A stretch of DNA of 64,000 nt from Candidatus Buchananbacteria bacterium CG10_big_fil_rev_8_21_14_0_10_33_19 (lineage in GTDB: Bacteria; Patescibacteriota; Patescibacteriia; 2-01-FULL-39-33): assembly GCA_002773855.1 (NCBI GenBank), contig PEZY01000012.1:4255-68254 (forward strand), read 5' to 3'. A program made the translations under genes and the position numbers. The notes below the pieces were generated by a model that saw only the letters and a list, made by a program, of their open reading frames with translations, did not search any database and was not told the origin of the DNA. Below, one piece after another: positions 27,564-58,915 of this stretch (within the stretch, counting starts at the first letter, position 1; each line of letters opens with the position of its first letter).

Positions 27564-27887
27564 ATGCAAAATAAAGAAAATTTTCTAAAGGCAATTGATG
27601 AAAAGTTGAAAATAAAAATAACTTTTAACTCAATTGAAAAAGGAGAAATCACTAGAACTTGTGTTCCTTTTGATTTTGGTCCATCACAAAAAGATGATGC
27701 AATTGATAAATCAAATAAATATCATGTTCTAGATTTAGATTCGCCAGAAGGAAAACCGCATAATCTTGCTGTCGCAGAAGACAAAATGATTAATATTGAA
27801 ATTCTTCAAGAAAAATTTAATCCAGATGATTATGTAACTTGGACTCCTAACTGGATTTACCCAAGAGATTGGGGTAATAAATCATAG
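27564..27887 (+). CDS. hypothetical protein
   Basis: 107 aa ORF between DUF2130 and hsdS, with no motif. Codon usage is similar to the surrounding R-M genes. Confidence 0.35.
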   Translation: MQNKENFLKAIDEKLKIKITFNSIEKGEITRTCVPFDFGPSQKDDAIDKSNKYHVLDLDSPEGKPHNLAVAEDKMINIEILQEKFNPDDYVTWTPNWIYPRDWGNKS

Positions 27888-27952
27888 TTTTAAGTTAGTT
27901 AGATACACGTATTTAAATAGGTGTATCTATACTGTTTTAAAACAGTAATTTT

Positions 27953-29146: not shown

Positions 29147-29150
29147 ATAT

Positions 29151-32342: not shown

Positions 32343-32345
32343 TTT

Positions 32346-41031: not shown

Positions 41032-41664
41032 GTGGATAATTTTTCAGATTACAATTCAAGTATGGGTCAGTATTCATTTGGTGAACCACCCAAAAGTCGT
41101 TTAAAGAAAACTTTAGAGTTTGTTTGGGAGATGACCAAAATCACTTGTATCTCTTTGGTAATCATATTACCAATCAGATATTTTTTGATTCAGCCTTTTT
41201 ATGTTAAAGGAGCTTCCATGGAGCCAAATTTTTATGACCATGAATACTTAATTATTGATGAAATCACTTATCGTTTTAACGAGCCTAAGCGTGGTGATAT
41301 TATAGTGTTTAAATATCCTAAAGATCCTAGACAATTTTTTATTAAAAGAGTGATTGGTTTACCTGGTGAAACTGTTAAAATTAAAGATGGTTTGATTTTT
41401 ATTACTTCAGTTGACGGTCAGGAGAATGTTTTATCAGAAGATTATTTGCCTAGTGATATTGAAAATGTATTACCAGTTAGTGGTTATGGCGAGGTGGTTT
41501 TAAATAATGATGAATATTATTTGATGGGTGATAACCGTGATCAAAGTTTGGATTCACGAGTTTTCGGTCCAGTAAAGGCTGACTACATTATTGGTCGGAC
41601 TTGGCTACGCGGTTGGCCGTTTAATCGGTTGACTTTATTTAATACTCCAGAGTACGGATTTTAA
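41032..41664 (+). CDS. lepB: signal peptidase I
   Basis: 210 aa. Box B GASMEPNF (catalytic Ser), box D KRVIGLPGE (catalytic Lys), box E GDNRDQSLDSRVFG. Confidence 0.85.
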   Translation: MDNFSDYNSSMGQYSFGEPPKSRLKKTLEFVWEMTKITCISLVIILPIRYFLIQPFYVKGASMEPNFYDHEYLIIDEITYRFNEPKRGDIIVFKYPKDPRQFFIKRVIGLPGETVKIKDGLIFITSVDGQENVLSEDYLPSDIENVLPVSGYGEVVLNNDEYYLMGDNRDQSLDSRVFGPVKADYIIGRTWLRGWPFNRLTLFNTPEYGF

Positions 41665-43191: not shown

Positions 43192-43250
43192 TAATAAATA
43201 ATAAGTTATAATTAGTATAATATAACTCATAGAAAGCGAGGTGAAACCCA

Positions 43251-43487
43251 GTGGCGGAAGTTAAAAGAAAAAAAGGTGAAACATTTGAAGCTTTAGTTAG
43301 AAGATTCAGTAAGAAGATTCAACAAAGTGGACGATTGATTCAATCAAGAAAAATTAGATATTACGAACCAAAAAAGAATAAAACAGCTGTTAGATCAGCA
43401 GCTTCTCGAAGAGAAGAAATATCTGAAAAAAGAGAATATTTAAAGAAAATCGGCAAACTAGTTGATGAAAGAGATAAGAGAAGATAA
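43251..43487 (+). CDS. rpsU: 30S ribosomal protein bS21, GTG start
   Basis: 78 aa. MAEVKRKKGETFEALVRRFSKKIQQSGRLIQSRKIRYYEPKKNK is the bS21 signature. SD GAGGTG lies 8 nt upstream of the GTG at 43251. Confidence 0.85.
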   Translation: MAEVKRKKGETFEALVRRFSKKIQQSGRLIQSRKIRYYEPKKNKTAVRSAASRREEISEKREYLKKIGKLVDERDKRR

Positions 43488-43563
43488 TCAAGTTTGTAGA
43501 GCATATTAGGCTGAGAAAATGTTTTTCAGCCTCATAGCCTTATAAGTTTAATTAGTAATTACC

Positions 43564-44022
43564 ATGTCCTTAGCCGAACAAATTAATCAAGATTTTTTAG
43601 TAGCGTTTAAAAGTAAAAATAGTGATGTGGTGGCTGTTTTGCGTATGCTTAAATCATCATTGACTAATAAAGAAATTGAAAAAAAATTACCCAAGAGTGA
43701 AGCTTTGTCTGATGATGATGTAATAGCTATTATAAAATCAGAAATTAAAAAAAGAAAAGATTCTTATACATCATATACTGAAGCTAATAGAAATGATCTA
43801 GCCGAAAAAGAAGAACAGGAAATTAAAATTTTAGAAAAATATTTACCAGAGCAGATGTCCGATGATCAGATAAAAGATATTGTTTTACAAGTTGTCACAG
43901 AAACCGGCGCCAGTAGTCCAGCTGATTTTGGTAAAGTGATGGGAGCAGTTATGGCCCAAACTAAAAATCAGGCCGATGGTCAATTAGTATCTAGTCTAGT
44001 GAAGGCAGTACTAGCCAAATAA
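43564..44022 (+). CDS. GatB/YqeY domain protein
   Basis: 152 aa. The protein starts MSLAEQINQDFLVAFKSKNSDVVAVLRMLKSSL..., the YqeY family pattern. This gene is commonly linked to rpsU. Confidence 0.8.
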   Translation: MSLAEQINQDFLVAFKSKNSDVVAVLRMLKSSLTNKEIEKKLPKSEALSDDDVIAIIKSEIKKRKDSYTSYTEANRNDLAEKEEQEIKILEKYLPEQMSDDQIKDIVLQVVTETGASSPADFGKVMGAVMAQTKNQADGQLVSSLVKAVLAK

Positions 44023-44049: not shown

Positions 44050-46974
44050 ATGTTTAGGACACGACTTTCAACCATGCAAAAGTCGAAAATCGCTAAAAAG
44101 ATGATCTTAGCGTCTTTTTTGGTGGTTTTTTTGGTTTTAATTTTGCCAAATGTCGGTTTGGCTCAAACTACCGCTGATAATCGTTTTGGCTTAGCTGATG
44201 CAGCGAGTATTGGCTTGGGACAAACTGATTTAAGAGTGGCCATCGTTAGAATTATTCAAATAATTTTAAGTTTCGTGGGTATTATTGCGGTGATTATGGT
44301 TTTATATGGTGGTTTTATTTGGATGACTTCCGGTGGGGATCCAGCCAAAATTGAAAAGGCCAAAAAAATCTTAATTAACACTATTATTGGTATAATTGTT
44401 ATTTTATCGTCTTATATTATTACCGCGTTTATTATCGGCGCTTTGACTGGTGCTGGCGGTGGCGGTGGTGGTTGGGGTCCTGGTGGCGGTGGCCCAGATG
44501 ATTTCGGGCGTTGGGGTATTGGCGTGGGGCCAATTGAAAGTGTTTATCCAGAACCAGGTCAAATTGATGTGCCAATTAATACGGCTTTAGCTGTCACCTT
44601 TAAAGAGGTGATTAATCCACAAACTATTTGCGGTGCTTCTGCTTGTGACGGTTTAACTACCAAGATTTCTAATGTCGAAATTTGTCAGGTAGATAACAGT
44701 GGTATTTGTCAGCCAGAAGGTGAAGAATTTTCTGCTCAGGCTTTTGTTGATAGCGTGGTCAAGAGTAATGACAATAGAACTTTTACTATTGTTCCTAATA
44801 AATATTTAGGTTTGGAAGATTTTATCAATAGAAGATTTAAGGTGACTTTAAAGTCTGGTATTGAGACAGTGGCCGAACCGGGAAAATCAGTTTTTGATAG
44901 CTTATTTAATAGTGAGTATGCTTGGCATTTTACTACTAATGGGGCTCTAGATTTGGATCCACCAGAAGTGATTGATATTACTGGTATTTATCCATATCCA
45001 GACAACGAAATAGATACTTACGGTGTAGCAACTGGTCCAACCGCTACGGAGTTTTCGGTAACTTTAATCCCAGCTAATATTAAAAAAGAAGTTTTGGCAT
45101 CATATGATAGTGACGCTATTGAAGGAGCAGGCACTACGATTAAGGGAACTTTAACTGGTAATTATGGTGGAGCCGGTAGTGGTGTGGTGACTGTTAATGT
45201 TAATTCGGCTACTGGCGAAATAAAGACTACTTGGCCAGCTGGGATGGGCACGTTTTCTAGTGGTCAATTCGATCCAACAGGCGCAGTATTAAATATTGGT
45301 CCTTATGGTTTAGTTTTTAATGTTGATGGTGTAGTGTCTCGAGGTAATTCTTGGACTTTTAATGTGACGGCTCATCAAACTGGTGATCAATTAGAACTTA
45401 AAGACAATAGTAATGTCATTAAAACTTATACTTTTGGCACCGATATCCCTAATCCGGTAGATTTTGATGATAAATTAATTAGCGATACTAGTTTATTTGA
45501 AACTTGTGGTATTAATTGTATTAAAACCAAACAAACAGGAGATGGTAGCGCTAGGTATAATTTAAATTATACGGGAGCGAGTGGTAATTTTGTGATCACT
45601 AAAACTAGTGGTCAAGACGAGCAGCCCAATAGACAACAAAATGGCTTATTAGATGCTTATCGTAATACTGTTATTCAAATTAATTTTAACGAAGCAATTA
45701 ACCCAGCCACTATTGCTGACAATATTTATGTTGGTAAGGTAGGTGGTGGTGAAGTAACTGGTTATACTATGCAAATATCTAATCAGTATAAAACCGTAGA
45801 ATTAACAGGCCCCGATCAATGTGGTACAAATAGCTGTGGTGACGAAATATTTTGTTGGCCGGTTAACAATGATTCTGAACCATATGAAGTAAAAATATCG
45901 GCAGCCACATTAATGAATGCTAGTGATGCTAAATGTTCGGCCTGGGGTGGTGTTGGCGACGGCAATGGTCGTTGTGTCAAAGAAATAAATAACAAACAAG
46001 TCTTTTATCCATTATCACCATCAGTAGATGGTTTAGTAGATATGAGTTTTAATTCTTTTAATGGTAGTTTTGATACTTATCAATCTAGTAATAAGACCTT
46101 AGGTATTGCCCAGGGCAAATCTGGTGCTGGTAGTGGCTATTCGGGACGAGATAAATATAATTTAAATTTGGGCATAGAGTGTACACCGGGGGCTTGTGGT
46201 ACGGCTGGATCTAGAGTGGTTAGTTATGGCGTATCAACTCCAGTGTATAATGCCAGTGGTTTTGGTGATGATTTTTATTGGTCATTTTTTATGTCTAGTG
46301 AAATAGATACCAAGGCTCCATTAATTAAAACCGATTCACCAACTGGTGATGAGGACGTTAGTAGTCCAGAGACTAAAATTAATTTTCATTTTGATAGATT
46401 AATGCGAAGCTCTACCTTAAAACCAGGCTGGAATTATGGTTCTAATTCAAAAGAAAAATCAGTTAGGTATTTAGTTTTACAAACTATTTCTGAATCAGCT
46501 TTACCAGTTGGCTATTGGACGGTTAAAACTGATTTAGATGAGAATTTTGATGGCTGGGCAGATTATACTAGAGCTGTTTTAAATCATAATAATTTTGATT
46601 TGGCTACCAAATATGGTCCACTCTCTGGTTCTGGTATTCAGTCCATTACTCAAAATTGCTTCTTACCTAGTGCTGGTCCTAAAGAAGCGGCTCAGGCTGG
46701 TCAGGAATGTGTTTATAATGGTGATGCTTTATCTGGTGGCTGTGCTTCAGTGGTGCCGACCAATCCAGCTTCTTATGGTTATTTAAATTGTTCAGAAATT
46801 GTCAATGCTACAACTTGTGCGGCAACGACTCAGGATTGTAAGGTCTTATACTATAATGTAAGTGATGCTACTACTGATTTGGGCGGTAGTTGGATTATTA
46901 CTAAAGATTTTAGTTCGGTAGCTGGTGATGGTAGTACTGGTTGTTGTTTTGGTACTTGCGTAGGTAAGCCTTAA
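44050..46974 (+). CDS. large secreted protein (974 aa) with N-terminal VirB2/TrbC-pilin-like double-TM domain, Gly-rich linker and beta-rich extracellular region
   Basis: Signal/TM (ILASFLVVFLVLILPNVGLAQ), then RVAIVRIIQIILSFVGIIAVIMVLYGGFIWMTSGGDPAKIEKAKKILINTIIGIIVILSSYIITAFIIGALTGAGGGGGG. That is two hydrophobic helices around a short WM..GG loop ending LTG-Gly-run, as in conjugative T-pilins. The N-terminal ~130 aa are paralogous to the next gene. Confidence 0.65.
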   Translation: MFRTRLSTMQKSKIAKKMILASFLVVFLVLILPNVGLAQTTADNRFGLADAASIGLGQTDLRVAIVRIIQIILSFVGIIAVIMVLYGGFIWMTSGGDPAKIEKAKKILINTIIGIIVILSSYIITAFIIGALTGAGGGGGGWGPGGGGPDDFGRWGIGVGPIESVYPEPGQIDVPINTALAVTFKEVINPQTICGASACDGLTTKISNVEICQVDNSGICQPEGEEFSAQAFVDSVVKSNDNRTFTIVPNKYLGLEDFINRRFKVTLKSGIETVAEPGKSVFDSLFNSEYAWHFTTNGALDLDPPEVIDITGIYPYPDNEIDTYGVATGPTATEFSVTLIPANIKKEVLASYDSDAIEGAGTTIKGTLTGNYGGAGSGVVTVNVNSATGEIKTTWPAGMGTFSSGQFDPTGAVLNIGPYGLVFNVDGVVSRGNSWTFNVTAHQTGDQLELKDNSNVIKTYTFGTDIPNPVDFDDKLISDTSLFETCGINCIKTKQTGDGSARYNLNYTGASGNFVITKTSGQDEQPNRQQNGLLDAYRNTVIQINFNEAINPATIADNIYVGKVGGGEVTGYTMQISNQYKTVELTGPDQCGTNSCGDEIFCWPVNNDSEPYEVKISAATLMNASDAKCSAWGGVGDGNGRCVKEINNKQVFYPLSPSVDGLVDMSFNSFNGSFDTYQSSNKTLGIAQGKSGAGSGYSGRDKYNLNLGIECTPGACGTAGSRVVSYGVSTPVYNASGFGDDFYWSFFMSSEIDTKAPLIKTDSPTGDEDVSSPETKINFHFDRLMRSSTLKPGWNYGSNSKEKSVRYLVLQTISESALPVGYWTVKTDLDENFDGWADYTRAVLNHNNFDLATKYGPLSGSGIQSITQNCFLPSAGPKEAAQAGQECVYNGDALSGGCASVVPTNPASYGYLNCSEIVNATTCAATTQDCKVLYYNVSDATTDLGGSWIITKDFSSVAGDGSTGCCFGTCVGKP

Positions 46975-46998
46975 AATATTTTTCGATTCTAATATTCT

Positions 46999-49900
46999 AT
47001 GATATTTAAAAAGACAATTCAAAAAAATATTTTAGCTTTGCTTTTGATGCTAATGATTTTTGGAGTTTTTGGTTTTTTTGGAGTGGCTTTGGCTCAGGAT
47101 AGATTCGGACTAGAAACAGCTACTGGCGTGGGCTTAGCTCAAACTGATTTACGAGTAGCGATAGTTAATATTGTTAGAATTATTTTAGGCTTTTTAGGAA
47201 TTGTAGCCGTGGGTATTATTATGTGGGGTGGCTATCTTTGGATGACTGCCGGTGGTGATGCAACCAAAGTAGATAAGGCTAAAAAAACTTTAATTTCAGC
47301 GGTAATTGGGTTAGTGATTATTTTGTCAGCTTTTATTATTGCTTCTTTTATTATTAATTCATTGCAAGGTGCTTTGTGTGAGGGTGATAATTGTCCAACA
47401 GCAACTTGTCCATCACCACCATGTTCGCCTACTTGTACTACACCACCATGTACTCCTGGTTCATCAACTCAATATACTTATATTAATAAATTTAGAGATA
47501 TTTCTATTCCATGGACCAGACTAATTGGCTCAGGTTTTAATGGTGTGGTTAATATACCAAATAGTGAAACCTTAGAAGTTGGTGGCTATGCTAAAAATTT
47601 GAGTGGTACAATTTCGAGCATGGAATTATTTACAGCACCACTTGCTGATATTTTTGTCGCTCAAAGTGTCTTTATTGATGTGCCAGCCGATCAGGAGATA
47701 GTCGATAATGTTTTTGCTTCTTGGAATACGTTAGCTTATACTATTGGCGATCAATTTAAATCTAGGATTTCGGCTTTATTGTCTGGGGGCTCGACTGTTG
47801 AATCTAAAGAAGTAAAAACTATTATCAAACCATTACACTGCTTTAATAATGTTCAAGACCAAGGTGAAACTGGAGTTGATTGCGGCGGTGATCCAGATGT
47901 CTTAGGTGATGATTATTGTGGTGCTTGTGGCGGTGGCACTTGTCAAAACGACAGTGATTGTTCTTCTGGGGTCTGTTTGCCAGAAGGCGTTTGTGCTATT
48001 GCTCCATTTATTTCTAGTGTTAGTCCAGACAATGGTGCTAGTGGTAATTATATTACTATTTGGGGTAGTAACTTTGGTGAAACGCCAGGTTCAGTGATGA
48101 TTGTCAAAGACGATGCCGTGATAGCTTTTGCTAATATTAATTTAAATTCCCAGTGCTTGAATGGTTGGAATGACACTCAAATTATTTTTGAGGTGCCAGA
48201 TATTTTGTTAGATAATTATGAGGTAGTGGTAGAAAATAGTATTGGCTTAACTAGTAATTCTGAAACTTTTGAGATTAATGAAACTCAACGACCTGGTATA
48301 TGTTCGGTTAATCCAAATTTTGGTATTAATCCAGATCCAATAACTATTATTGGTAATAATTTCCCATCTAGCCCAGATGGTGAGATTCAGTGGAATTTTA
48401 CTCCTGAAGTTTTTTCTAGTTCAGAAGTTAGTTGGTTAAGTGATACCGAGGCTAGTGATGTGGTACCAGCCAGTGGGGTGGGTGCAACTAGTATCAGAAT
48501 TTATTCTGGCACAGAATATAGTAATTATTTTAATTTTGTTATCAGTCACGGTGAAATAGGTGACCCTTGTGGTGAGCCGGGGGCGGCTGTGTGTTCAGCC
48601 GAGAATGCTTGTAGCACTGGCTTGTCCTGTGATCCTAATCAGGATTGTACTTGCCAGGCTATCATTAATGCTTGTGAGCCTGGTTTTTCTAGACCATGTG
48701 ATATCGATGGTAATACTTGTGCAGCTACTGAAGTGTGTCCAACTAGTGGTAACTGGGATGATGCAACGTGTACGCAAGTTGATTCGACTTGTACTCCAGG
48801 GGTGACAGTGGCACCGGCCACTCAATCGATTTTTGCTTGGGCTTTTACTTATAGTAATGGTTATGGCTTTGAGCCGCCACAGATTGTGGAGGATTGTAGC
48901 CGTGTTCGTGACTGTTTTCCTAATCAAAAATTACCTAGTCCAGCTCCTTGGTATGAGGGTAGCAATGCTAGTGAAGGTTGGGATCCAGTAATTCATCCTG
49001 GTTTATATATTGAAGATCCTAAGGCTTGTGTGAATGCGACTATTACTGCTCGGTTTACCGAAGTTATGGATGATCAATCTGTTAAAGATAATATAACAGT
49101 TTTGAAGTGTACAGAAAAAGAAGGCACTTCTTGTACTAAGGTTAATGGTGAAGTGGCAGTTTATCCAACTGATGCTGGAGATTATTTTGTCTTTGGTAGT
49201 CCAACTATAGTTAATCAAGCGGCTTTTGAGTCTAAATTTTGGTATAAGGTGGTTGTAACCAAAGGAGTTAAAAGTTTGGTTAATGTGGAAATGGAAACTA
49301 ATGAACAGGTAGTTAATAATCGGTTTTGTAATGTCGCTGGTATTGGTGATGCGGTTTATTGTTGGAATTTTAAAACCAGAGATGATGCTACCTATTGTGA
49401 TGCTGGTTGTCCAGAATGTAATCCAGATTTTAAAACTTTAAATTATTATTTCCAAACTCAGCAGTTTAACACAGAACTAGTAAGTGATGATAATGTATGT
49501 TTGACCATTGATCCTTGGGCGTATACTTGGGATTGGTCATCAGAGGATGATACTAAAGTCCAAATTACTAATGATGGTGGCAATCCTCAGCAAACTGGTA
49601 CGGCTTATGGTGAGAATTATAATATCGCGCCTTATTATACCAAGGTTTTTGCGGAACTAACGCAAAATGGTAACAACGATTATTGTCGAGTGATTACTGA
49701 TTTTACTAATCCCGTAGTCATAGAAAATTCATATTGTTCACCGGGGATTATTCAAAGTCCAACGCCATGGATTAATTCTAAAGACGCTTGCCGTAATGCT
49801 TTAATAGCGGCTAAGTTTAGCCGGGATATGAATGATCCAAGTTTAACTTTAAATACAGTTACTGGCCTTAAAGAGGGTAATAATGGTAATAATGGTAATA

Positions 49901-52900
49901 TTATTGTCGAACAATGTGATAGTAGTGATGAATTTGAAGGTGCTTTTACAAGTTGTAAAAGTATTAAAATTACTGATTCTTCAAATTTAACTATTTTTAC
50001 TTATAGTCATAATGTTGATGTTCAGGGCTTGTTGACTGGCGATAATAGTTTTGGTGATGGTTTGGCTGAAGGTTTTGTCATTGATGTTACTAGTAAAGAT
50101 CTAGAAGGTAAAAAAGCCGCTAATGGTTATTTGGCTGATAATACATGGTATCGAGTGATTATTTTGGGTGGTCCAAATGGTGTGGGTGGGGCTGATAATA
50201 CCGGAGATGGGATTCCAGACGGAATTCTGTTAACTGATAATAGTATTATTTCAACAGTTAAAGCTGGCTGGGATTATAATGGTGATGGTTTTGATGATTA
50301 TTATTGGGTATTTAAGACTAGCAACCAAATTTGTGATGTAAATAGTATTCAAGTTACTCCAGCCGAGAATTTCTTAGAATTTACCGATCAAACTAGCAAA
50401 TATAATGCTTTTCCACAAGCCGCTAATTGTAATTTATTGGCGCGTTGTTTGTTGAATTGGACTTGGAAGTCATTAATAGAATTAGGAGATAACACTGAAA
50501 GTGGTGATCCAATTGCCTCAATCACCAAATTAGCTAATCAAGCTGGTGTTTGTGGTGGTTTTGATGATGGTATTGTGGATCCAGTTCAGACGGCAACTGC
50601 TAAGTTAGATGGTGAAACTAATATTGTGGCTAATGAACCAGGTGGTAAATCTGGCTCTGGTCATTTACAAGTTGGTTATGGTCAGTTAGCAGTGATCAAA
50701 TACAATCCTAGTAATCTAGTTCATTTTGAAGAAAGAAATATTGATACTTACTTTAATATTGACGCCAAAACAAATTCAGTTCGTTTGAATAATGTAGTCA
50801 ATCATAATGTTAATTTGTATAAGTGTACCAATGCCTTAGCTTACTACAAATTAAATGGTAATACTAATGACAGTTCTGGTAATAAATATAATGGTGATAA
50901 TAAATCAACATCATTTGTGTCTGGTTATCTAAATGAAGCGGCTAGGTTTAATGGAGCGGCTGGCCGTTATATTCAGCTTAATAATCCAGCTTTAAAAATT
51001 GCCGGAGCCATGACAGTTTCAGCTTGGGTGAAGCCAATGGCTCCCGCTCAGGGTGTCGGACAGGTTATAATTTCTAGTTATTATGGTGGAGATCATCCAG
51101 AGAATCAAAGGGGCTGGACACTTGGTCAAATATCTGGTTGTAATCTTGCTAATCCTAACTGTGATTCAGTTACTGATCGCATTTACTTTTCAGTTAATGA
51201 TAGTAATGGTAATAATACATTAGCCCCAGTTCCTAATTTCTTTGCCACCTATCAAGATCAATGGGTGCATGTTACCGGTGTGTTTAAGCCAGGCGTATCA
51301 GTGGCTATTTATATTAATGGTAAATTAGTTAGTTCAAAAAGTACTACTATTTCTACTATCGGTTATCAGCCAGATATTTTTACTAGAATTGGTTATATGG
51401 CTGATCGTGATAATCAGGGTATGTGGATTGGTTTAATTGATGAAGTGAAAATTTATAATAGTGCTTTGTCTGATGTTGATGTTAGTAGAATGTATTCTGC
51501 TAATAATGAATGTCCAGTTTATGACTTAGTTGCTAAAACTTTAGAGCCGGTCTTGCCAGCTCCCGGTAATAATCCAGAGTTATCTAAAAAATTAGCTGTT
51601 AAATACAATGCTAATTATCAAGTGGGAGCTGAATACCGCATGATATTAAAGGGTGGACCAAACGGTCTGATTGCTTGGAATGATACAGAATTATCTAGAT
51701 TAAATTTTAATAGTACTGGTGAAGGTGGTGGCGAAGAATGTGAGCCAGGTATTTATCCTTGGAATGATGCAACTAATATTTGCACTAATAGTTGTTTGCT
51801 TAATTCGTCGTTTAATTTATGTACTTTAGATAATGGTCGGTTTGCCGAATGTAAAGAGGGCTCTGACTATTGTAGTGGTACTTGTCATAATGAAGGTAAT
51901 AACAATGCCGATTCTTGCGGTGATAACGTAGTGGGACCAAATGAAGAATGTGATGATGGCAACGCTAACAATGGTGATGGTTGTACTTCTAGTTGTTTAT
52001 GGGAAGGGGCTGATGATAGCTGGGGTTCTATTTGTGGTAACGCGGTTATTGAATATGGTGAGAGCTGTGATGATGGCAATGCGGGTAATTGTGAGGCTAA
52101 TTGTTTAAAGAAATCTAATATATCAACTGGTTCTCAATCTAATGTCCCAGTTTGTGGTAATGGTATTAAAGAACAGGGTGAAGATTGTGATGATAGTAAT
52201 AAGACTAGCGGCGATGGTTGTTCTAATAAATGTTTATTAGAAGGCTTTAGCTCGGCCTATGGTTCTACTTGTAATAATGATTTAGTAGAGACAGGTCAGG
52301 CTGATAGTTTTTCTTGGACTTTTACTGCGGTTAATGATCCGTCGGTTAATATTAATATGAATAATTGTAGTAATGGTATTTGGCAGGTAGAAGTAAAACG
52401 GGGAAACATTACTGCTGATGATATATATATATGTAAACGAAATCCAGCTGTCGCTTTTTCGGAAAATAATGTTTGGGGTAAAATTATTGCCAAAATAAAA
52501 TTAGTTATTGCTAAAGTTTTTGGTAGTAGTCAGGCTTTAGCTGGCAGTGGTGATGGCTGTGGAGCTGGCTATGAATTAGTGACTCAGAATACTACTAATT
52601 TTGAAGAGCGTTTAGAGTATATGAATCAAGATAGTCATATTTATGCTTATATTAAAAATGGTTATTGGGATATTGATGCAAAATACAAAATAAATGTTTA
52701 TGAAGGAGCTTATGATCCAATTACTAATAATACCTCAAAGGCTTCTAGTGAGGTAACTATTAAGGAATATTGTGTTTTAGATGATGTTAGAGTAGAAATT
52801 TGGCCTCGTGGTGAAGTAAGTTCTAATGATAATTTCTTTTGTATTGGTGATGATTGTGGTTCTAGTACGACTAATTTGTATGATGATGATATTTCTTCGG

Positions 52901-55900
52901 CCACTAATAATGACGCGCCAGATCCTAATTATGATTTTCCATATTTGAAGGTTAATGGTGCTAATAAAACCGATCCTAATTTAGGCGGTAATCAGCATTT
53001 ATATATGGCTTGGGGGGTTAATGAGTTTGGTTATCTAATTAAAGCCGAAGGTGGTTTTAATTGGAGCTTGGCTAATTTACCAATATTTGATTTAGCGGTG
53101 ACATCTTATGATGGTACTAGTTATACTGGTGATCAATGGTTAAGTTTAAAGGGCTATAAAGCCACTGGAGAAATTGATGGTCGTGATGTGGTAACAGTAT
53201 CAGCGACTCAGTCTGGAGTAAATCCAACTCCCGTTATTGAATCAAAAGACATAGATGTTAGAGTTTTCTTATGTAATAATCCTTGGCCAGCACCAGAAAA
53301 TTTCCCATATCAAGATTCTTTAAATAATTGTACTAATGGCAATTGTCCAAATACTAATTTTGAGATTTATTATTGTCGTGATAATGGTGTAGTCGGTGAA
53401 GCGGAAGATTTGGCTGCTCTAGATACTAGCACTATTGTTTACGATGCTAATCCATTTAAAAAAGAATTTTTATTGCAACGTGATGATAATAATGATGCTG
53501 TGGGTATTAGAGTAGTAGCTAATAATAATCATTACTCACCACTAGCTTGGTATCAAGAAAACTTTGATCAGGAAAGACAGGGCAATTCTAGGAGCATTAA
53601 AGTTAATGGTTATGAGGCCATAGCCGAAGGCCGAACGATTTATGTTAATGCGGTTAATGTTGAAAATACAATTTCTTCACCAAAATCGCTGTATTCACAA
53701 ATTTATGTGATGTCTTATAATGATGGTGCTGATAATAATACTAAAAATATTTATGATCAGATGGCCAAATTTATGAAGTTTAATGTGGGCACTTCACTCG
53801 AAGGCGGTTTATCAGACGTTGGGGTATGTAAAGATAATTCTAGTTACAATTGTATTAATGATAGCGATTGTCAGGCAGTTAATGCTGGAGTTTGTTTATC
53901 GCCAAAAGGCAGTGCAACTCGTGATATTAAACGTTTATCTGATTTACAAGATATTAATTTATTGTTGGATGAATATCATAGTCAAAAACGTTGTAGTAAT
54001 GACAAGTTTACTACTTGTTATAGTAACGCTCAATGTTATGGTGGTGGTACTTGTGGTAATTACTATCCAGACTTGCCGGCTGGTACTTATATTTCGGCTC
54101 GTAGTTTTAGTGTTTGGCCTTCTTGGCAAGCTACCTTGGGCAATGTTTTAGGCTCGGCTTTACCAGTTGACCCATTAAATAATGGTGCTAGTACTGATTA
54201 TTTTGCTGTGGATGGTTATGGTTTTAACGGTTGTTCTGAGCCATATGATTCAATTACTTGTTGGGATGATGTTAATAAGAAAATGCAGTGCCCAAATACA
54301 GCCCAGGCTTACGCTTATTTCTCTAACAATAATGGTAATAATAAGGGTGTTTATGCTTTTGCTGAATTTCCTAAATCTGGTTCTGGATCGGCTATCTGGT
54401 TGCCTATAAATTGGGACAATGTCAGATTTTTTGGTAATCAGGATGGGAATAATACTAATGATAATAACCCATTTAGTTTTACTGTTAGTAATACTTGTGA
54501 AGTTTATTCTAGTTCTTGTGGTAATGGCACAATTCAAGCTGGCGAAAATTGTCATAGTTGTCCGTTTGATGTGAGTTGCGGGGCTGGTACTTCTTGTCGA
54601 GAAGCTAGTGGTAGTTGGTCCTGTACTCCAGACTCGACGGTTATTGATTCAGACGGCGACAGTATTATAAATAATAATGATAATTGTCCGTTTATTGCTA
54701 ATACTAATCAAGTGGATTCTGATGGTGATGGCATTGGTGATGTCTGTGATAATTGTTTTAGTATTAAAAATGGTTCAACTAATTCGACTGCCACTTGTCT
54801 GGATAAAAATAATAACGGTAATTTAAGTGTGGCTGAAAAAGCGGTTTGTAATCAAGCAGACAAAGACGGTGATACTTATGGTGATGCTTGTGATACTTGT
54901 CCTGCTGATTACAATCAAGATCAAAGTGTGAAACCTTGCGTGTTGGCTGGTTGTGGTGACGATGTAATACAGGCTGGTGAGTTTTGTGACGAATTAGAAA
55001 ATCCACCGACTGATGCTGGTACTTGTAATGCCACTTGTAGTGCGGCTACTTTTTGTGGTGATGGTGTAATCCAGAGTTTAAATGGTTATGGTGATTTAGA
55101 AACCTGTGATGATGGTAATAGTTTTAACGGTGATGGTTGCTCTAAAACCTGTACTATCGAAGCTGGTTGGGAGTGCTCTGGTACACCAAGTAGTTGTAAT
55201 GTGCCATTTTGTGGTGACGGCATAAAACAGGCTTCTGAGACTTGTGATTGTGGCGATGCTCCAGGTCCACTAGGTGCTCCGTCTAATTGTGGTAATTCTG
55301 GTCAAACTTACACTACTCATAATATTCCTCCAAAAGCTAATCTGGACACTTACTTTAATCCTTTCTGGAATATTACTTCAGTATCAAAGAATTATTGTAG
55401 TAGTTCTTGTAAGAATATGTCTATAGATTTGTTATATTGCGGTGATAGTGAATGGAAACAGTCTCAAGAAGAATGTGAAAAAAATGGTGCTGGTGATGGT
55501 AGTTTTGGTTGGGGATTAGCCACTGGGGCTGATAATCAGTGGTCTTGTAGCACTACTTGTACAGATACTGGTGGTTGGTGTGGTGATGGCACGGTTCAAA
55601 CTGCCAAGGAACAATGTGATCCTAGTGATAGTGGAATTAACAATATTTACAATAGTCTTTGCCAAACTGATGGCGTCAATAAATGTAAATGGGAAGCTTG
55701 TCCACCGTATATTACTAATCAAGCAGTTAATTTTGAATCACCAACTGGTGGAGCGTTAGTGGCTGGTAACAGTGTTAAGTTCACTGACAATGGTCAAACC
55801 GTTAACATAGTTTTTCCTAATTGTAGTTTGGTAGAAAATAATCAATTAAATACTACTGTCACAGTTGTAGGTGAAGTGCCAACAACTGATGTGGTGTTTG

Positions 55901-57009
55901 TAACTTCTCTATCTCAGACTATGAATCCAACAAGTATAACATCTTATGATTGTCAATGTGGTTTTTTTGGCTGTGACACTTGTAATGAAACTTGTCGGCT
56001 AACTGATTGGGGTAATAACAGTAGATATCCTGTAGATATTGGTAATACAAATTTAAGTTTTTGTAATCCAAAGGCATTTTTTAATGGTAGTAGTGGTGAT
56101 GGTTGTTGGTTTGCATCATCTAGCTATGATGCTTGTCAAGCTCCGCCAGGTAATAATTTGCAATCATACTTAAAAAATTCAGTAGCTAATTTGTTTAATG
56201 GTGTATCTAGTTATCCTATTTCAGTGTTAAAGATTGGTTTAGTCGAGTTTAGTGACGTAGCTTCTAATTCTAGTATTGTTACGAGTAATAATTTAGGCAC
56301 GTTAAATAATAGAATTAATAATTATATAACTATGGATGCGTCTCGCACTGATTTGGGTATTAAAAAGGCCAGAGAAATGTTGGCTGGTAGTTCAGCTGAT
56401 AATAAGATTATTGTTTTATTGAGTAATGGTAATACTGATAATGCCACAGCAACTTTAAATGAGGCTAATACGGCTAAAAACACTACCAATAAAATAAAAA
56501 TTTATTCAGTGGCTTTTGGTGCTTCCAATGTAGGAAATATGAATAGTTGGTCGTCTAATAATGGTCAATATCAATGTAATTATGACTATTGTTTTCAGTC
56601 TACTGATACTAATACTAGTATTATTTCTGATATCTTAGGTAACCTTAAATTAAATGCGACTTTGAGTATTGGCGGACAAGATACGAGTTATACTCTTGAT
56701 TATTCAGACGGTGGTACAGCGATTTATAGTAACCAGATTATGAAATTACCAAGTAATATTTGTACTTCTGATAATAAAACCGTTGCCATTAGTGGTTTAA
56801 AAGCTGGTAACACTATTACTTTCTCTAGTCCGACTTTTAACTATTGTCCATATCATCCACCAGTATCTGCTATTTTTACTAGCAATGAAATTGATGGTAA
56901 TGTAGCTGGAGCTTCTGATAACATACTTAATAACTCATTCAATAGATTCTTAAATTTAGGCAGTGATCTTAAAAAAATATTTATCAGTTTACTAAGTATG
57001 ATATTTTAA
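46999..57009 (+). CDS. giant surface protein (3336 aa): VirB2/TrbC-pilin-like N-terminal anchor followed by a multidomain extracellular region (IPT/TIG, LamG, Myxococcus-type Cys-rich repeats/DUF4215, TSP3 Ca-binding repeats, vWA); putative adhesin
   Basis: N-terminus RVAIVNIVRIILGFLGIVAVGIIMWGGYLWMTAGGDATKVDKAKKTLISAVIGLVIILSAFIIASFIINSL. IPT/TIG at about 48.0 kb (PFISSVSPDNGASGNYITIWGSNFG). LamG at about 50.85-51.5 kb (YYKLNGNTNDSSGN...MTVSAWVKP...IDEVKIYNSALS). Cys-rich repeats at about 51.9-52.3 kb (CGDNVVGPNEECDDGNANNGDGCTSSC, three copies). TSP3 at about 54.65-54.92 kb (DSDGDGIGDVCDNC; DKDGDTYGDACDTC). vWA at about 55.9-56.5 kb (VVFVTSLSQTM...IIVLLSNGNTDNA). Single uninterrupted ORF. 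Confidence 0.75.
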   Translation: MIFKKTIQKNILALLLMLMIFGVFGFFGVALAQDRFGLETATGVGLAQTDLRVAIVNIVRIILGFLGIVAVGIIMWGGYLWMTAGGDATKVDKAKKTLISAVIGLVIILSAFIIASFIINSLQGALCEGDNCPTATCPSPPCSPTCTTPPCTPGSSTQYTYINKFRDISIPWTRLIGSGFNGVVNIPNSETLEVGGYAKNLSGTISSMELFTAPLADIFVAQSVFIDVPADQEIVDNVFASWNTLAYTIGDQFKSRISALLSGGSTVESKEVKTIIKPLHCFNNVQDQGETGVDCGGDPDVLGDDYCGACGGGTCQNDSDCSSGVCLPEGVCAIAPFISSVSPDNGASGNYITIWGSNFGETPGSVMIVKDDAVIAFANINLNSQCLNGWNDTQIIFEVPDILLDNYEVVVENSIGLTSNSETFEINETQRPGICSVNPNFGINPDPITIIGNNFPSSPDGEIQWNFTPEVFSSSEVSWLSDTEASDVVPASGVGATSIRIYSGTEYSNYFNFVISHGEIGDPCGEPGAAVCSAENACSTGLSCDPNQDCTCQAIINACEPGFSRPCDIDGNTCAATEVCPTSGNWDDATCTQVDSTCTPGVTVAPATQSIFAWAFTYSNGYGFEPPQIVEDCSRVRDCFPNQKLPSPAPWYEGSNASEGWDPVIHPGLYIEDPKACVNATITARFTEVMDDQSVKDNITVLKCTEKEGTSCTKVNGEVAVYPTDAGDYFVFGSPTIVNQAAFESKFWYKVVVTKGVKSLVNVEMETNEQVVNNRFCNVAGIGDAVYCWNFKTRDDATYCDAGCPECNPDFKTLNYYFQTQQFNTELVSDDNVCLTIDPWAYTWDWSSEDDTKVQITNDGGNPQQTGTAYGENYNIAPYYTKVFAELTQNGNNDYCRVITDFTNPVVIENSYCSPGIIQSPTPWINSKDACRNALIAAKFSRDMNDPSLTLNTVTGLKEGNNGNNGNIIVEQCDSSDEFEGAFTSCKSIKITDSSNLTIFTYSHNVDVQGLLTGDNSFGDGLAEGFVIDVTSKDLEGKKAANGYLADNTWYRVIILGGPNGVGGADNTGDGIPDGILLTDNSIISTVKAGWDYNGDGFDDYYWVFKTSNQICDVNSIQVTPAENFLEFTDQTSKYNAFPQAANCNLLARCLLNWTWKSLIELGDNTESGDPIASITKLANQAGVCGGFDDGIVDPVQTATAKLDGETNIVANEPGGKSGSGHLQVGYGQLAVIKYNPSNLVHFEERNIDTYFNIDAKTNSVRLNNVVNHNVNLYKCTNALAYYKLNGNTNDSSGNKYNGDNKSTSFVSGYLNEAARFNGAAGRYIQLNNPALKIAGAMTVSAWVKPMAPAQGVGQVIISSYYGGDHPENQRGWTLGQISGCNLANPNCDSVTDRIYFSVNDSNGNNTLAPVPNFFATYQDQWVHVTGVFKPGVSVAIYINGKLVSSKSTTISTIGYQPDIFTRIGYMADRDNQGMWIGLIDEVKIYNSALSDVDVSRMYSANNECPVYDLVAKTLEPVLPAPGNNPELSKKLAVKYNANYQVGAEYRMILKGGPNGLIAWNDTELSRLNFNSTGEGGGEECEPGIYPWNDATNICTNSCLLNSSFNLCTLDNGRFAECKEGSDYCSGTCHNEGNNNADSCGDNVVGPNEECDDGNANNGDGCTSSCLWEGADDSWGSICGNAVIEYGESCDDGNAGNCEANCLKKSNISTGSQSNVPVCGNGIKEQGEDCDDSNKTSGDGCSNKCLLEGFSSAYGSTCNNDLVETGQADSFSWTFTAVNDPSVNINMNNCSNGIWQVEVKRGNITADDIYICKRNPAVAFSENNVWGKIIAKIKLVIAKVFGSSQALAGSGDGCGAGYELVTQNTTNFEERLEYMNQDSHIYAYIKNGYWDIDAKYKINVYEGAYDPITNNTSKASSEVTIKEYCVLDDVRVEIWPRGEVSSNDNFFCIGDDCGSSTTNLYDDDISSATNNDAPDPNYDFPYLKVNGANKTDPNLGGNQHLYMAWGVNEFGYLIKAEGGFNWSLANLPIFDLAVTSYDGTSYTGDQWLSLKGYKATGEIDGRDVVTVSATQSGVNPTPVIESKDIDVRVFLCNNPWPAPENFPYQDSLNNCTNGNCPNTNFEIYYCRDNGVVGEAEDLAALDTSTIVYDANPFKKEFLLQRDDNNDAVGIRVVANNNHYSPLAWYQENFDQERQGNSRSIKVNGYEAIAEGRTIYVNAVNVENTISSPKSLYSQIYVMSYNDGADNNTKNIYDQMAKFMKFNVGTSLEGGLSDVGVCKDNSSYNCINDSDCQAVNAGVCLSPKGSATRDIKRLSDLQDINLLLDEYHSQKRCSNDKFTTCYSNAQCYGGGTCGNYYPDLPAGTYISARSFSVWPSWQATLGNVLGSALPVDPLNNGASTDYFAVDGYGFNGCSEPYDSITCWDDVNKKMQCPNTAQAYAYFSNNNGNNKGVYAFAEFPKSGSGSAIWLPINWDNVRFFGNQDGNNTNDNNPFSFTVSNTCEVYSSSCGNGTIQAGENCHSCPFDVSCGAGTSCREASGSWSCTPDSTVIDSDGDSIINNNDNCPFIANTNQVDSDGDGIGDVCDNCFSIKNGSTNSTATCLDKNNNGNLSVAEKAVCNQADKDGDTYGDACDTCPADYNQDQSVKPCVLAGCGDDVIQAGEFCDELENPPTDAGTCNATCSAATFCGDGVIQSLNGYGDLETCDDGNSFNGDGCSKTCTIEAGWECSGTPSSCNVPFCGDGIKQASETCDCGDAPGPLGAPSNCGNSGQTYTTHNIPPKANLDTYFNPFWNITSVSKNYCSSSCKNMSIDLLYCGDSEWKQSQEECEKNGAGDGSFGWGLATGADNQWSCSTTCTDTGGWCGDGTVQTAKEQCDPSDSGINNIYNSLCQTDGVNKCKWEACPPYITNQAVNFESPTGGALVAGNSVKFTDNGQTVNIVFPNCSLVENNQLNTTVTVVGEVPTTDVVFVTSLSQTMNPTSITSYDCQCGFFGCDTCNETCRLTDWGNNSRYPVDIGNTNLSFCNPKAFFNGSSGDGCWFASSSYDACQAPPGNNLQSYLKNSVANLFNGVSSYPISVLKIGLVEFSDVASNSSIVTSNNLGTLNNRINNYITMDASRTDLGIKKAREMLAGSSADNKIIVLLSNGNTDNATATLNEANTAKNTTNKIKIYSVAFGASNVGNMNSWSSNNGQYQCNYDYCFQSTDTNTSIISDILGNLKLNATLSIGGQDTSYTLDYSDGGTAIYSNQIMKLPSNICTSDNKTVAISGLKAGNTITFSSPTFNYCPYHPPVSAIFTSNEIDGNVAGASDNILNNSFNRFLNLGSDLKKIFISLLSMIF

Positions 57010-57065
57010 ATGTAAATATATCAAAAATATTGTATAATGTAATTAATATATATTTAATCAAAATT

Positions 57066-57818
57066 ATGTTTGACCAAAATCCCAATAAACCATCTGGACA
57101 AATGTCCAATTCAACTCAAAGACAATCTCCGCCGCCACCAGGTTTGCCAGCAGAGCCAAAATCAGTTCCTCAGCCACCACCAGTGGAGGATATATTTTCT
57201 AAAACAGAAAATTTCTCACAGGCTCAAATTACTAGACCAATGCAACCGGGTCAGGCGACTCAAATGCAAGTTTCAGGTGATATGTACGGCGGTAAATCTA
57301 TTTGGGATAATAAAATTTTGTTAGTACTACTAATAGTTATTGGTTTGGCTGTAATTGGTGGTGTAGTATTTGCGGCAATTATGTTTTTTAGTAACCAAAG
57401 TTCTACACCAAATACCAATATAGATGATAATATGACAACCAATATTAACACTAATGATAATGTCAATAGCGTTAATAACAATACTAATGACAACACTAAT
57501 ACAGAAGTTAATACTAATACCGAAGTTAATATTAATGCTGAAATTAATACTAATACTGAAGTCAACACTAATACAGTTGTTGGTAAAGACAGTGATAACG
57601 ATGGCTTAAGTGATGAAGAGGAAAAACAATTAAGTACTAATCCTAATAATTTTGATACTGATGGTGATGGTTTGATTGATAGAGTAGAGGTGCGGATATA
57701 CCATACTGATCCACTTAAGAAAGATACTGATGGTGATGGTTATAATGATGGTGATGAAGTGGTAAATGGTTTTGATCCAGCTTTAGGTGGTGGCGCCAGG
57801 TTATTTGATGTGCCTTAA
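57066..57818 (+). CDS. membrane protein with Pro-rich N-terminus, one TM, N/T-rich tandem repeats and TSP3-type Ca-binding repeats
   Basis: Preferred start at Met 57066 (MFDQNPNKP) rather than the track's 57030. TM ILLVLLIVIGLAVIGGVVFAAIMFF. Six-residue repeats NTNTEV/NINAEI (18-nt DNA period). DSDNDGLSDEEE, DTDGDGLIDRVE and DTDGDGYNDGDE motifs. Confidence 0.5.
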   Translation: MFDQNPNKPSGQMSNSTQRQSPPPPGLPAEPKSVPQPPPVEDIFSKTENFSQAQITRPMQPGQATQMQVSGDMYGGKSIWDNKILLVLLIVIGLAVIGGVVFAAIMFFSNQSSTPNTNIDDNMTTNINTNDNVNSVNNNTNDNTNTEVNTNTEVNINAEINTNTEVNTNTVVGKDSDNDGLSDEEEKQLSTNPNNFDTDGDGLIDRVEVRIYHTDPLKKDTDGDGYNDGDEVVNGFDPALGGGARLFDVP

Positions 57819-57844: not shown

Positions 57845-58915
57845 ATGTTTGGTTCTAAAAAAAATAATATTACACCGCTTAAAGATGTTATGCCAGCTTC
57901 CTCCGAAGACGTTTATGTTATGCCAGAGAAATTTCATTCACAGAGGTCAGGCGGTTCTTCTGATAAAACTTTAATGATCGTGATTATTATCTTGGTGTTG
58001 ATAATGACTGCCATTGGTTCTTATTTTATTTATAATAGTTGGCAAAAAAATCAAAACCAAACCAATCAAAACATCAATCAAAATATTGCCATTGTTAATC
58101 AAAATGTTAACGATAATCAAAATATTAATGGTTCCAGAAATTTTAATAGTAATGAAAACATTAATGTAAATGGCAATGAAAATGTTAATAGTAATTTAAA
58201 TGCTAATTCTGATGGTAGTGATAATCAAAATAGCACTAGCACCGCTCCAGTTATTAATGAATTAGTGCCACCAGCTATAAGTGGTGATGCTGATAAGGAC
58301 GGCTTAACTGATTTAGAAGAGTCACTAATTGGTACTTCAGCTAGTTCACCCGATTCAGATTTAGATGGTTATTTAGATAGTGATGAATTAATTGGTGGCT
58401 ACAATCCTATTATTAATCCTAATAGTGGTAGTCTTATTAAATTAATTGATGCCAGTTTTGTAAGTAAATTAATGACAGATTTTCCAACTAATAATTTTAA
58501 AACACTTTACATTAAGGGCTGGTCCGTAAGTATGATTGAAGCTTTACATGAGGCTAGAATTATTACGGGCACTGGCGAGATGATTAAAATATCTGTAATT
58601 AACAATGCAGATCAAGTCTCAGCCGCTAATTGGTATTTGCTTGGTCATCCTCAGATTACTTTAAGTCAATTGGGCAATTTGGAATTTGGTAACTTCAAGG
58701 GTATTAGAGCACCGAATGGCTTGGCAGTGTATTTAACCGATCAAAAACGCGAGAAGATATATGTTATAGAATATGATTTAGATACGTCAACAGAGTTTAG
58801 ATACCCATCTATTTTTGAAATGGTAATTAGAAATTTTGATTTAATTGGTGAGTCAATAAAGGTAATTGATGATACTACTAATAATAATTCAGCTTCGACT
58901 TCACCAGTGCTGTAA
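57845..58915 (+). CDS. membrane protein with N/Q-rich low-complexity region, TSP3-type repeats and C-terminal globular domain (paralogous architecture to 18209 and 57066)
   Basis: 356 aa. TM LMIVIIILVLIMTAIGSYFIY, a NQNQTNQNINQNIAIVNQNVNDNQNIN stretch, and DADKDGLTDLEE / DSDLDGYLDSDE motifs. Confidence 0.5.
   Translation: MFGSKKNNITPLKDVMPASSEDVYVMPEKFHSQRSGGSSDKTLMIVIIILVLIMTAIGSYFIYNSWQKNQNQTNQNINQNIAIVNQNVNDNQNINGSRNFNSNENINVNGNENVNSNLNANSDGSDNQNSTSTAPVINELVPPAISGDADKDGLTDLEESLIGTSASSPDSDLDGYLDSDELIGGYNPIINPNSGSLIKLIDASFVSKLMTDFPTNNFKTLYIKGWSVSMIEALHEARIITGTGEMIKISVINNADQVSAANWYLLGHPQITLSQLGNLEFGNFKGIRAPNGLAVYLTDQKREKIYVIEYDLDTSTEFRYPSIFEMVIRNFDLIGESIKVIDDTTNNNSASTSPVL

Follow-up and report, generated by a model that had tools for sequence, protein, structure and literature searches.

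Predicted VirB2-type pilin modules joined to very large ectodomains in a conserved gene pair of Candidatus Falkowbacteria

What might a bacterium do with proteins that begin like a pilin and run on for hundreds or thousands of residues? This question is raised by two adjacent genes on contig PEZY01000012.1, within a 64-kb stretch of chromosome (hereafter the window; GC content 30-39%) that carries housekeeping genes. An earlier note on this DNA had described their products as tandem giant surface proteins that share a VirB2/TrbC-like N-terminal module. The open reading frame (ORF) listing and the translations placed the two ORFs, as that note had done, at 44050-46974 (974 amino acids, aa; protein 1) and 46999-57009 (3336 aa; protein 2, the giant), and the N-termini were indeed paralogous, with 57% identity over 94 ungapped residues (E 3e-38). 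We propose that both genes may encode modular VirB2-type pilins, each with a complete T4SS_pilin module and a very large C-terminal extracellular region. We give this reading, in which the proteins are linked to a pilus or a type IV secretion system (T4SS), slightly less than even odds (about 0.45). It is drawn from the family membership of the module, the invariant residues that it has kept, its standing as the most conserved region, the pairing of the genes, and the concerted evolution of the two modules. The two proteins are laid out as follows, up to the ectodomain of the giant (AF2, AlphaFold2).

44050-46974, + strand: protein 1, the 974-aa pilin fusion and conserved partner (ORF; PF18895 37.7 bits, Big_5 48.8 bits)
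44050-44163, + strand: signal peptide of protein 1, aa 1-38 (hydrophobic segment 12-42; AF2 helix 13-36)
44182-44454, + strand: VirB2/T4SS_pilin module of protein 1, aa ~45-135 (PF18895 over aa 65-127; AF2 helices 61-93 and 98-132)
44455-44529, + strand: Gly-rich linker of protein 1, aa 136-160 (sequence; pLDDT below 50 at 132-140)
44530-46971, + strand: ectodomain of protein 1, an all-beta Ig-like string (two Big_5 matches; Pfam segments, AF2)
46999-57009, + strand: protein 2, the 3336-aa giant pilin fusion and variable partner (ORF; PF18895 37.5 bits)
46999-47094, + strand: signal peptide of protein 2, aa 1-32 (hydrophobic segment; AF2)
47101-47376, + strand: VirB2/T4SS_pilin module of protein 2, aa ~35-126 (PF18895 44.3 bits; PF04956 23.9 bits; hairpin pLDDT above 90)
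47377-47466, + strand: Cys/Pro-rich linker of protein 2, CEGDNCPTATCPSPPCSPTCTTPPC (sequence)

Both whole proteins matched the Pfam family PF18895 (T4SS_pilin) with 37.7 and 37.5 bits, which exceeds the gathering cut-off of 26.6 bits, and the isolated modules reached 42.2 (protein 1) and 44.3 bits (protein 2). The scores against PF04956 (TrbC/VirB2) all stayed below its cut-off of 27.9 bits (whole proteins, 13.8 and 16.8 bits; isolated modules, 17.9 and 23.9 bits), with module E-values of 3.7e-3 and, for protein 2 with the whole profile covered, 4.8e-5. Among 90 aligned relatives, PF18895 matched all 90 and PF04956 matched 48 at E <= 1e-3. In protein 1, two hydrophobic helices flank the loop W-M-T-S-G-G-D...K-A-K-K. 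Six residues (G67, G78, W81, M82, G86, and G104) were invariant across the 90 sequences, both fusions included, and were also invariant in stand-alone pilins, to many of which the modules were about 50% identical.

The profile-profile comparison that the earlier note had called for was made with hhalign against a small set of aligned MPF_T VirB2/TrbC pilins, genuine ones encoded on Ti-type plasmids. A probability of 76% (E 2.3e-5) was obtained with both helices aligned; the motifs G-x-D...ILG-FG...G--WM fell together, and the inter-helix loop was 8 residues longer in the proteins from candidate phyla radiation (CPR) bacteria. The VirB2 motifs named in the earlier note, ISWMFGRA and LTGG, are present in real VirB2. 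Furthermore, protein 1 passes into its ectodomain at the very point at which VirB2 stops (..LTGGS, compared with ..LTGAGGGG in protein 1). When the module profile was run against PDB sequences, only A. tumefaciens VirB2 (T-pilin) was found, in the right register and without significance (E 7.9). Foldseek with the isolated module returned nothing from PDB below E 0.36, a search that is uninformative on VirB2 homology because a bare helical hairpin is not discriminating. Taken together, the PF18895 scores, the PF04956 E-value of 4.8e-5, and the hhalign result bear out the VirB2/TrbC likeness and support the module as a real member of the VirB2/TrbC-type pilin superfamily, its homology to true VirB2/TrbC being distant.

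The two proteins share with the T4SS_pilin proteins (PF18895) of Patescibacteria the family cut-off that both exceed, the signal peptide and hairpin, the invariant residues, the phylum, and the tandem arrangement of module genes. However, those members are stand-alone proteins of about 120-140 aa, whereas here the module is continued by ectodomains of 840 and 3210 aa to totals of 974 and 3336 aa; moreover, the present pair lies in a housekeeping block and not near virB4. VirB2/TrbC proper (PF04956; A. tumefaciens T-pilin, PDB 8cue) has in common with the fusions an A-x-A|Q-type site and ..LTG-G after helix 2, besides the distant homology over both helices and the motifs given above. The fusions differ in their scores below the PF04956 cut-off, in the longer loop, in the lack of VirB1/B3/B4 neighbours, and in their monoderm organism, and head-to-tail cyclisation would be impossible for them unless the C-terminal ectodomain were cleaved. 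A weak match (22-27 bits against a cut-off of 40; E 7.5e-5 and 2.6e-6) was also seen with the pilin-like protein of Mycoplasma integrative and conjugative elements (NF045849, Mbov_0395 family); these proteins belong to the T4SS of a wall-less monoderm and are small, stand-alone, and encoded on mobile elements.

Each protein has exactly three hydrophobic segments, the signal peptide and the two helices, all of them before residue 137. AlphaFold2 with 90 aligned sequences, the structure prediction that had been asked for, gave a signal-peptide helix and then a hairpin of residues 51-82 and 88-126 at pLDDT above 90. Signal peptidase I sites were predicted at G-L-A|Q in protein 1 and at A-L-A|Q in protein 2. 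The inter-helix loop (WMT-GGD..K..KAKK) contains four basic and two acidic residues, and since it is net-positive, the positive-inside rule would place it in the cytoplasm and would leave the N-terminus and the large C-terminal part outside. Beyond helix 2, both proteins were acidic and Cys-rich. The LPxTG sorting signal was absent from both proteins, as was a C-terminal transmembrane segment, and the class III or type IV prepilin motif (G|F/M-T-L-I-E) was absent from the first 60 residues of each; no SLH or other known S-layer anchoring domain appeared in the Pfam scans, which gave only Big_5 ('SbsA Ig-like'). From these features both proteins are directly predicted to be exported by a Sec-type route and anchored by the hairpin, with the large region directed outward.

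Next to the family membership of the module stands the pairing of the genes. At least 597 relatives of protein 1 were found in species-representative genomes (one genome per species), and synteny and module statistics were taken from the best 80 of these loci, 77 of which held a complete homologue. A pilin-module ORF lay directly 3' of the protein 1 homologue in 69 of the 77, with a median gap of 20 nucleotides (nt). Complete partners were 496-3385 aa long (median 1954), and partners cut by a contig end reached more than 3657 aa. The eight partnerless loci were too short or were separate 'orphan' copies beside recA or an ftsK-like gene, and one locus had three pilin fusions in a row. The order of the block was fixed: DprA-Pth-Der-LytR and LepB-HisS-(S21)-YqeY, then the fusion of about 1000 aa, the giant, and two thrombospondin type 3 (TSP3) repeat membrane proteins followed by YbeY-FtsA. 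The same block surrounded protein 1 homologues down to 29% identity on metagenome contigs of 0.2-0.96 Mb, where the giants measured 2241-6360 aa and started with PF18895, followed by LamG, VWA, TIG, DUF4215, or LTD domains. Across the best 80 loci, LepB and HisS were upstream in most, and the two TSP3-repeat membrane proteins, YbeY, and FtsA were widely conserved downstream.

The orthologous giants 3' of protein 1 homologues spanned 1458-6360 aa. Their conservation was established through synteny and not through a homologue search with the ectodomain; such a search, with a 1201-aa segment of the giant's ectodomain, returned five matches only. As far as the sequences directly indicate, protein 1 is the conserved partner, and protein 2 varies in both length and domain content. 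The orphan copies outside the LepB-HisS block are pilin fusions of about 900 aa, found by recA (L035, L048, L077, and L094) or by the ftsK-like gene (L033 and L050). Many of the locus-bearing contigs (L016-L093) are titled 'uncultured Gammaproteobacteria bacterium' (TPA_asm bulk submissions of metagenome-assembled genomes); judging from the gene content, these titles look wrong.

The two modules were then compared over 86 aligned columns in 69 genomes. Their mean identity was 66.3% within a genome, as against 47.8% between protein 1 and the protein 2 of another genome, and orthologous modules were 49.8% and 48.0% identical. The partner from the same genome was the best module match in 48 of the 69 genomes, and in 91% of ordered genome pairs the paralogues of a genome were more alike than were the orthologues of either protein. 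Because the ectodomains are orthologous, the gene pair is older than these divergences, and the modules have therefore been homogenised repeatedly. At identical residues, identical codons were used with a frequency of 0.510, compared with 0.433 expected from the genome's own codon usage (2,079 observed and 1,768 expected of 4,079, roughly 10 standard deviations); the per-genome ratio had a median of 1.14 and rose to 1.5-1.74 in six genomes. This excess of shared codons indicates that gene conversion contributes, episodically. In 67 of the 69 genomes, no BLASTP match was obtained between the two ectodomains; the conversion is confined to the module.

In L029, an extra pilin fusion 6 kb away was 25-30% identical to the two partners, which were 68% alike. 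Where three fusions follow one another, the outer two were 72% alike, and the middle one was 51-53% identical to each. L011, from a relative of Ca. Falkowbacteria, carries seven stand-alone T4SS_pilin genes at 7383-12510, six of them in a tight tandem array, whose products were 27-58% identical to each other (mean 40%); no VirB4 was present within 10 kb of this array. The published Patescibacteria arrays of 2-11 pilin genes are likewise divergent, with a mean identity of 25% (PMC12102498), whereas the present pair is homogenised at 66%. Thus, by comparison with the L011 array, the extra fusion of L029, and the triple locus, the homogenisation is peculiar to the pair.

In the protein 1 family, moreover, conservation is highest in the module, which is 44-56% identical compared with 27-33% for the ectodomain. 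This family consists of 74 homologous clusters, mostly of 850-1160 aa, with the same PF18895 and Big_5 architecture and with many invariant residues, among them six Cys and the C-terminal motif G-C-C-F-G-x-C. The ectodomain of protein 1 itself holds 22 Cys together with this conserved motif. The AlphaFold2 model (pLDDT 84, pTM 0.70) displayed the hairpin, a disordered Gly linker, and the all-beta Ig-like string. With the whole model, Foldseek found generic multi-Ig matches only, at TM-scores below 0.11; the best of these included the Bacillus anthracis S-layer protein Sap and cadherins.

The ectodomain of the giant is more diverse. Protein 2 contains 146 Cys, and the following domains were recognised in it.

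48004-48273, + strand: IPT/TIG domain, aa 336-425 (PF01833 34.3 bits, cut-off 20.9)
49027-49284, + strand: Big_5 Ig-like domain, aa 677-762 (PF13205 24.5 bits, cut-off 23.6)
50962-51483, + strand: Laminin_G_3 or concanavalin-A-like lectin domain, aa 1322-1495 (PF13385 76.4 bits)
51916-52260, + strand: first cluster, three Myxococcus-type Cys-rich acidic repeats, aa 1640-1754 (PF13948 38.9 bits; TIGR02232; motif positions)
54715-54741, + strand: thrombospondin type 3-like Ca-binding motif DSDGDGIGD (PF02412 24.5 bits, cut-off 25, aa 2550-2571)
54952-55689, + strand: second cluster, four Cys-rich acidic repeats, aa 2652-2897 (TIGR02232 best stretch 2685-2726; motifs)
56164-56430, + strand: von Willebrand A-like (vWA) region, aa 3056-3144 (PF13519, VWA_2, 22.1 bits, below the cut-off of 27)

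The domain list that had been read from the giant was largely borne out. In segment-wise Pfam scans, TIG, Laminin_G_3, and the Cys-rich repeat scored above their cut-offs, and TIGR02232 on the whole protein gave 88.7 bits, also above its cut-off. The Cys-rich repeats are present but are not three in number, since a regular-expression search found seven cores in the two clusters. TSP_3 and VWA_2 fell just below their cut-offs (24.5 against 25 and 22.1 against 27 bits, respectively); a clear VWA match (PF00092) was given by the orthologue of the giant in L005. The pilin-like modules are accordingly fused to ectodomains of the adhesin type, as had been claimed, with Ig-like, LamG lectin, Cys-rich repeat, TSP3, and vWA-like domains.

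How common such fusions are was addressed with an exhaustive phmmer search of the giant's 134-aa module against 1.84 billion cluster representatives, which at E <= 1e-3 matched 31,887 proteins, of which 5,205 remained at E <= 1e-10; clustering at 50% identity over-represents long, fast-diverging proteins in these counts. Among the best 150 relatives, 113 had one module and 37 had 2-14 modules per ORF. As many as 91 of the 113 single-module proteins measured 500 aa or more (41 of them 2,000 aa or more and 18 of them 3,000 aa or more, up to 6,217 aa), and the module ended before residue 170 in all 91; proteins of stand-alone size (<=160 aa) numbered six among the best 150. A word-index search with the same module yielded almost only stand-alone pilins of 101-235 aa. 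The fused architecture is very common in sequence databases, and some members bear the NCBI names 'TrbC/VirB2 family protein' or 'pilin'. P0001 (135 aa, 75% identical to the giant's module), for which no contig is recorded, was considered as a stand-alone pilin of this genome and rejected, its sequence looking like a truncated giant.

Since 91 long fusions stand against six stand-alone pilins in the best 150, this subfamily behaves mainly as an N-terminal anchor, and this leads to the main rival explanation. The pilin hairpin may have been exapted as a plain anchor of constitutive envelope or S-layer-like proteins and adhesins, which would work independently of any T4SS and never enter a pilus, the module being kept for membrane insertion, membrane oligomerisation, or sorting. 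The very large ectodomains fit this explanation, as does the location, in that T4SS genes never adjoin the locus and the pair sits in a core housekeeping block alongside LytR, LepB, and genes of cell division. The Ig-like string of protein 1 with its structural matches to Sap and cadherins points the same way, but these matches are generic (TM-scores below 0.11), and no SLH or other known S-layer anchoring domain accompanies them. Moreover, a plain anchor would not need to keep all the invariants of the pilin family, including the W-M-T-x-G-G loop, and neither the module as the most conserved region nor the homogenisation specific to the pair would be expected of it. On this balance we hold the exaptation to be a serious possibility, if a somewhat doubtful one.

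The modular-pilin reading can be set out as a sequence of steps. After cleavage by signal peptidase I, the hairpins would sit in the cytoplasmic membrane, where the matched pilin modules would bind the two proteins to each other and probably to the stand-alone VirB2-like pilins that these bacteria also encode. A conserved adaptor and a variable adhesin would in this way be exposed together on the cell, the most plausible site being the end of a T4SS-type pilus that is assembled first (the tip) or else the membrane platform of the pilus; there the pair would bring about contact with a host cell or a substrate. C-terminal display on conjugative pili is topologically possible, as fusions to the C-terminus of F-pilin have indicated.

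Several observations weigh against this proposal. The locus lies in a housekeeping block without T4SS machinery; no T4SS genes were found in the 64-kb window or, in seven Pfam-annotated loci, within 10 kb of the pair. That three pair-carrying genomes are VirB4-positive according to Table S1 of PMC12102498 speaks for the proposal, but with little weight because VirB4 is present in most Patescibacteria (2,474 virB4 genes in 3,035 genomes in that survey; PMC12102498). Pilus formation by PF18895 proteins of Patescibacteria is itself only putative (PMC12857230). An ectodomain of 800-6000 aa on every subunit of a filament is impossible, which leaves a tip or sparse position in a pilus at most. The fold searches with the module and with the whole of protein 1 gave no specific match. 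Finally, the concerted evolution could result simply from conversion among neighbouring repeats and involve no selection for compatibility.

A more far-reaching version would make the pair the missing T4SS adhesin of Patescibacteria and a conserved host-contact organelle of the class ABY1, in which matched modules would serve to place a conserved adaptor and a fast-diversifying giant at the tip of a monoderm T4SS-type pilus, forming a new class of modular VirB2 pilins. We consider this version unlikely. In favour of a pilus-linked role, the phylum survey of Patescibacteria found no PrgB-like adhesin (PMC12102498); PrgB-like adhesins are sortase-anchored through a C-terminal LPxTG signal, which both proteins here lack.

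Alternatively, the ORFs may be precursors: following export, cleavage would part the module from the ectodomain and so produce a mature pilin together with a giant protein that is released or associated with the wall. The analogy is with the C-terminal trimming of RP4 TrbC before its cyclisation; the precursors of TrbC and VirB2 are processed at both ends. The ectodomain begins exactly at the end of VirB2, as described above, the module is followed by flexible linkers rich in Gly or in Cys and Pro, some single ORFs contain 2-14 pilin modules and might be processed likewise, and a gene of the signal-peptidase family is a conserved neighbour. Nevertheless, no conserved cleavage motif follows helix 2, protein 1, protein 2, and the remaining fusions having wholly different linkers; the conserved stretch that comes after the linker of protein 1 is the start of a Big_5 domain; and the neighbouring peptidase looks like an ordinary housekeeping LepB. 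Processing of this kind therefore seems improbable to us. The multi-module ORFs, or 'polypilins' (P0207, P0209, P0204, P0219, and others, all outside the window), contain 2-14 or more tandem T4SS_pilin modules each; examples are a protein of 1775 aa with 14 modules by hidden Markov model (HMM; 17 phmmer stretches) and one of 820 aa with 8. Each is either an array of covalently linked pilins or a precursor from which separate pilins are cut.

The earlier note had called the arrangement 'not a described system'. This was overstated for the pilin itself, as PF18895 is a curated family and both VirB2-like pilins and tandem arrays of CPR bacteria have been published (PMC12102498, PMC10633639, PMC12857230); a survey with PF18895 and PF04956 had identified VirB2-like pilins in 1,948 assemblies of Patescibacteria (PMC12102498). 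In the searchable literature, no account of the pilin-ectodomain fusion, of the conserved pair, or of its concerted evolution was found. The conserved pair with concerted module evolution is new information, and the pilin family is known. A 2025 review names the T4SSs of Patescibacteria as the only monoderm T4SSs with potential pili (PMC12857230). In host-attached Paceibacteria, T4SS_pilin genes are among the highest-expressed genes of unknown function (PMC10936435).

Comparable principles are known from other surface proteins. In Streptococcus sanguinis, which is also monoderm, PilB (vWA) and PilC (lectin) carry adhesive modules C-terminal to a pilin (PMC8179133, PMC9934059), and the module types, vWA and a concanavalin-A-like lectin, match those found here. 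Their scaffold is unrelated, with its class III signal peptide and only one helix, at the N-terminus, so that this is an analogy and not homology, and the present ectodomains are 10-50 times larger than the PilB and PilC modules. The epibiotic CPR bacterium Vampirococcus lugosii has ten giant membrane proteins of 1392-4163 aa with a proposed role in host recognition (PMC8080830); these are likewise very large, membrane-localised, and rich in adhesion domains, but no pilin-type anchor or gene pairing has been reported for them (PMC8080830).

A pilin array and T4SS are essential in Ca. Southlakia epibionticum (PMC10633639), and it is on this ground, the requirement of the T4SS and VirB2-like pilins for epibiotic growth of the sole genetically tractable Patescibacterium, that the present pair deserves attention. 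VirB2-type pilins are usually seen as small, whereas in a large CPR class they are routinely fused to adhesin-type ectodomains of up to several thousand residues; accordingly, HMM-based counts of 'VirB2 homologues' mix true small pilins with giant surface proteins. Since the pair is conserved and its two anchors evolve together throughout a whole bacterial class, it is a good candidate for the attachment of host-dependent bacteria to other cells. As a conserved and a variable partner at a fixed chromosomal position with modules held alike, the two proteins are concrete candidates for host contact and offer a testable link between pilin modules and adhesion.

That the 10-kb ORF might be an artefact of assembly or gene calling, through collapsed repeats or a chimeric join, had been raised as a caveat. 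Contigs of two other metagenome samples matched the DNA of the locus with 100% identity across 13,974 nt and 6,655 nt, a 3275-aa orthologue in L003 was colinear with the giant from end to end (46-48% identity), and intact giants lie 3' of protein 1 homologues in dozens of species. Besides one 25-nt run, no DNA tandem repeats were present in the locus. Nothing was found in favour of an artefact, and the ORF is real; we count this explanation as already refuted, its chance being virtually nil. In the JGI and NCBI gene calls, protein 1 starts at Met9 (nt 44074) and has 966 aa. An NCBI protein with the assignment Candidatus Falkowbacteria, found on contigs as long as 438 kb, was 100% identical to the 974-aa protein; this agrees with the CPR-like organism that had been suspected and places it in the class ABY1. 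A mobile-element origin of the pair was considered and rejected, the housekeeping block lying on chromosomal contigs of 0.3-0.96 Mb with no relaxase, VirB4, or integrase nearby.

The genes of the window include ParAB, RelA, TopA, DprA, Pth, Der, a type I restriction-modification (R-M) system, MsrAB, LytR, LepB, HisS, YqeY, YbeY, FtsA, FtsZ, and PrfA. The gap between the ORFs of protein 1 and protein 2 was 24 nt, and since all intergenic gaps from yqeY to ybeY were 8-27 nt, this stretch looks like a single transcription unit; promoter and terminator scans around the locus gave chance-level results only. Three neighbours may be related to the pair.

41032-41664, + strand: LepB, signal peptidase I, a conserved upstream neighbour on the same strand (PF10502 153 bits)
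57030-57818, + strand: TSP3-repeat membrane protein, single-pass, with a 20-nt gap to the giant gene (PF18884 71.7 bits)
57845-58915, + strand: second single-pass membrane protein, with TSP3-like D-x-D-x-D-G motifs, after a 26-nt gap (sequence; synteny)

LepB lies three genes upstream of the pair and is conserved in related loci. It is a plausible processing enzyme for the pilin signal peptides. In RP4, the LepB-like peptidase TraF matures and cyclises the TrbC pilin. The two downstream proteins have Asn-rich linkers and bacterial thrombospondin type 3 Ca-binding repeats, and the first of them follows the giant gene in most loci that reach that far. From their synteny, both may be members of the same surface apparatus. 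A gene resembling them was also present at 18209-19045 of the window.

Three further features of the window were noted. The 372-nt gap between hisS and yqeY (43191-43564) holds a small S21-like ORF (rpsU); at this position, a gene of 78-88 aa is called in related contigs, with one weak match to PF01165. The type I R-M system is complete and lies within 23885-33050, with HsdM at 24706-26217, a DUF2130 protein at 26222-27511, HsdS at 27953-29146, and HsdR at 29151-32342, beside which lie an extra half-size HsdS (23885-24469) and a YgjP-like metallopeptidase (32346-33050). Just upstream of this system, two adjacent DUF6624 genes converge, at 22646-23209 on the + strand and 23246-23644 on the - strand.

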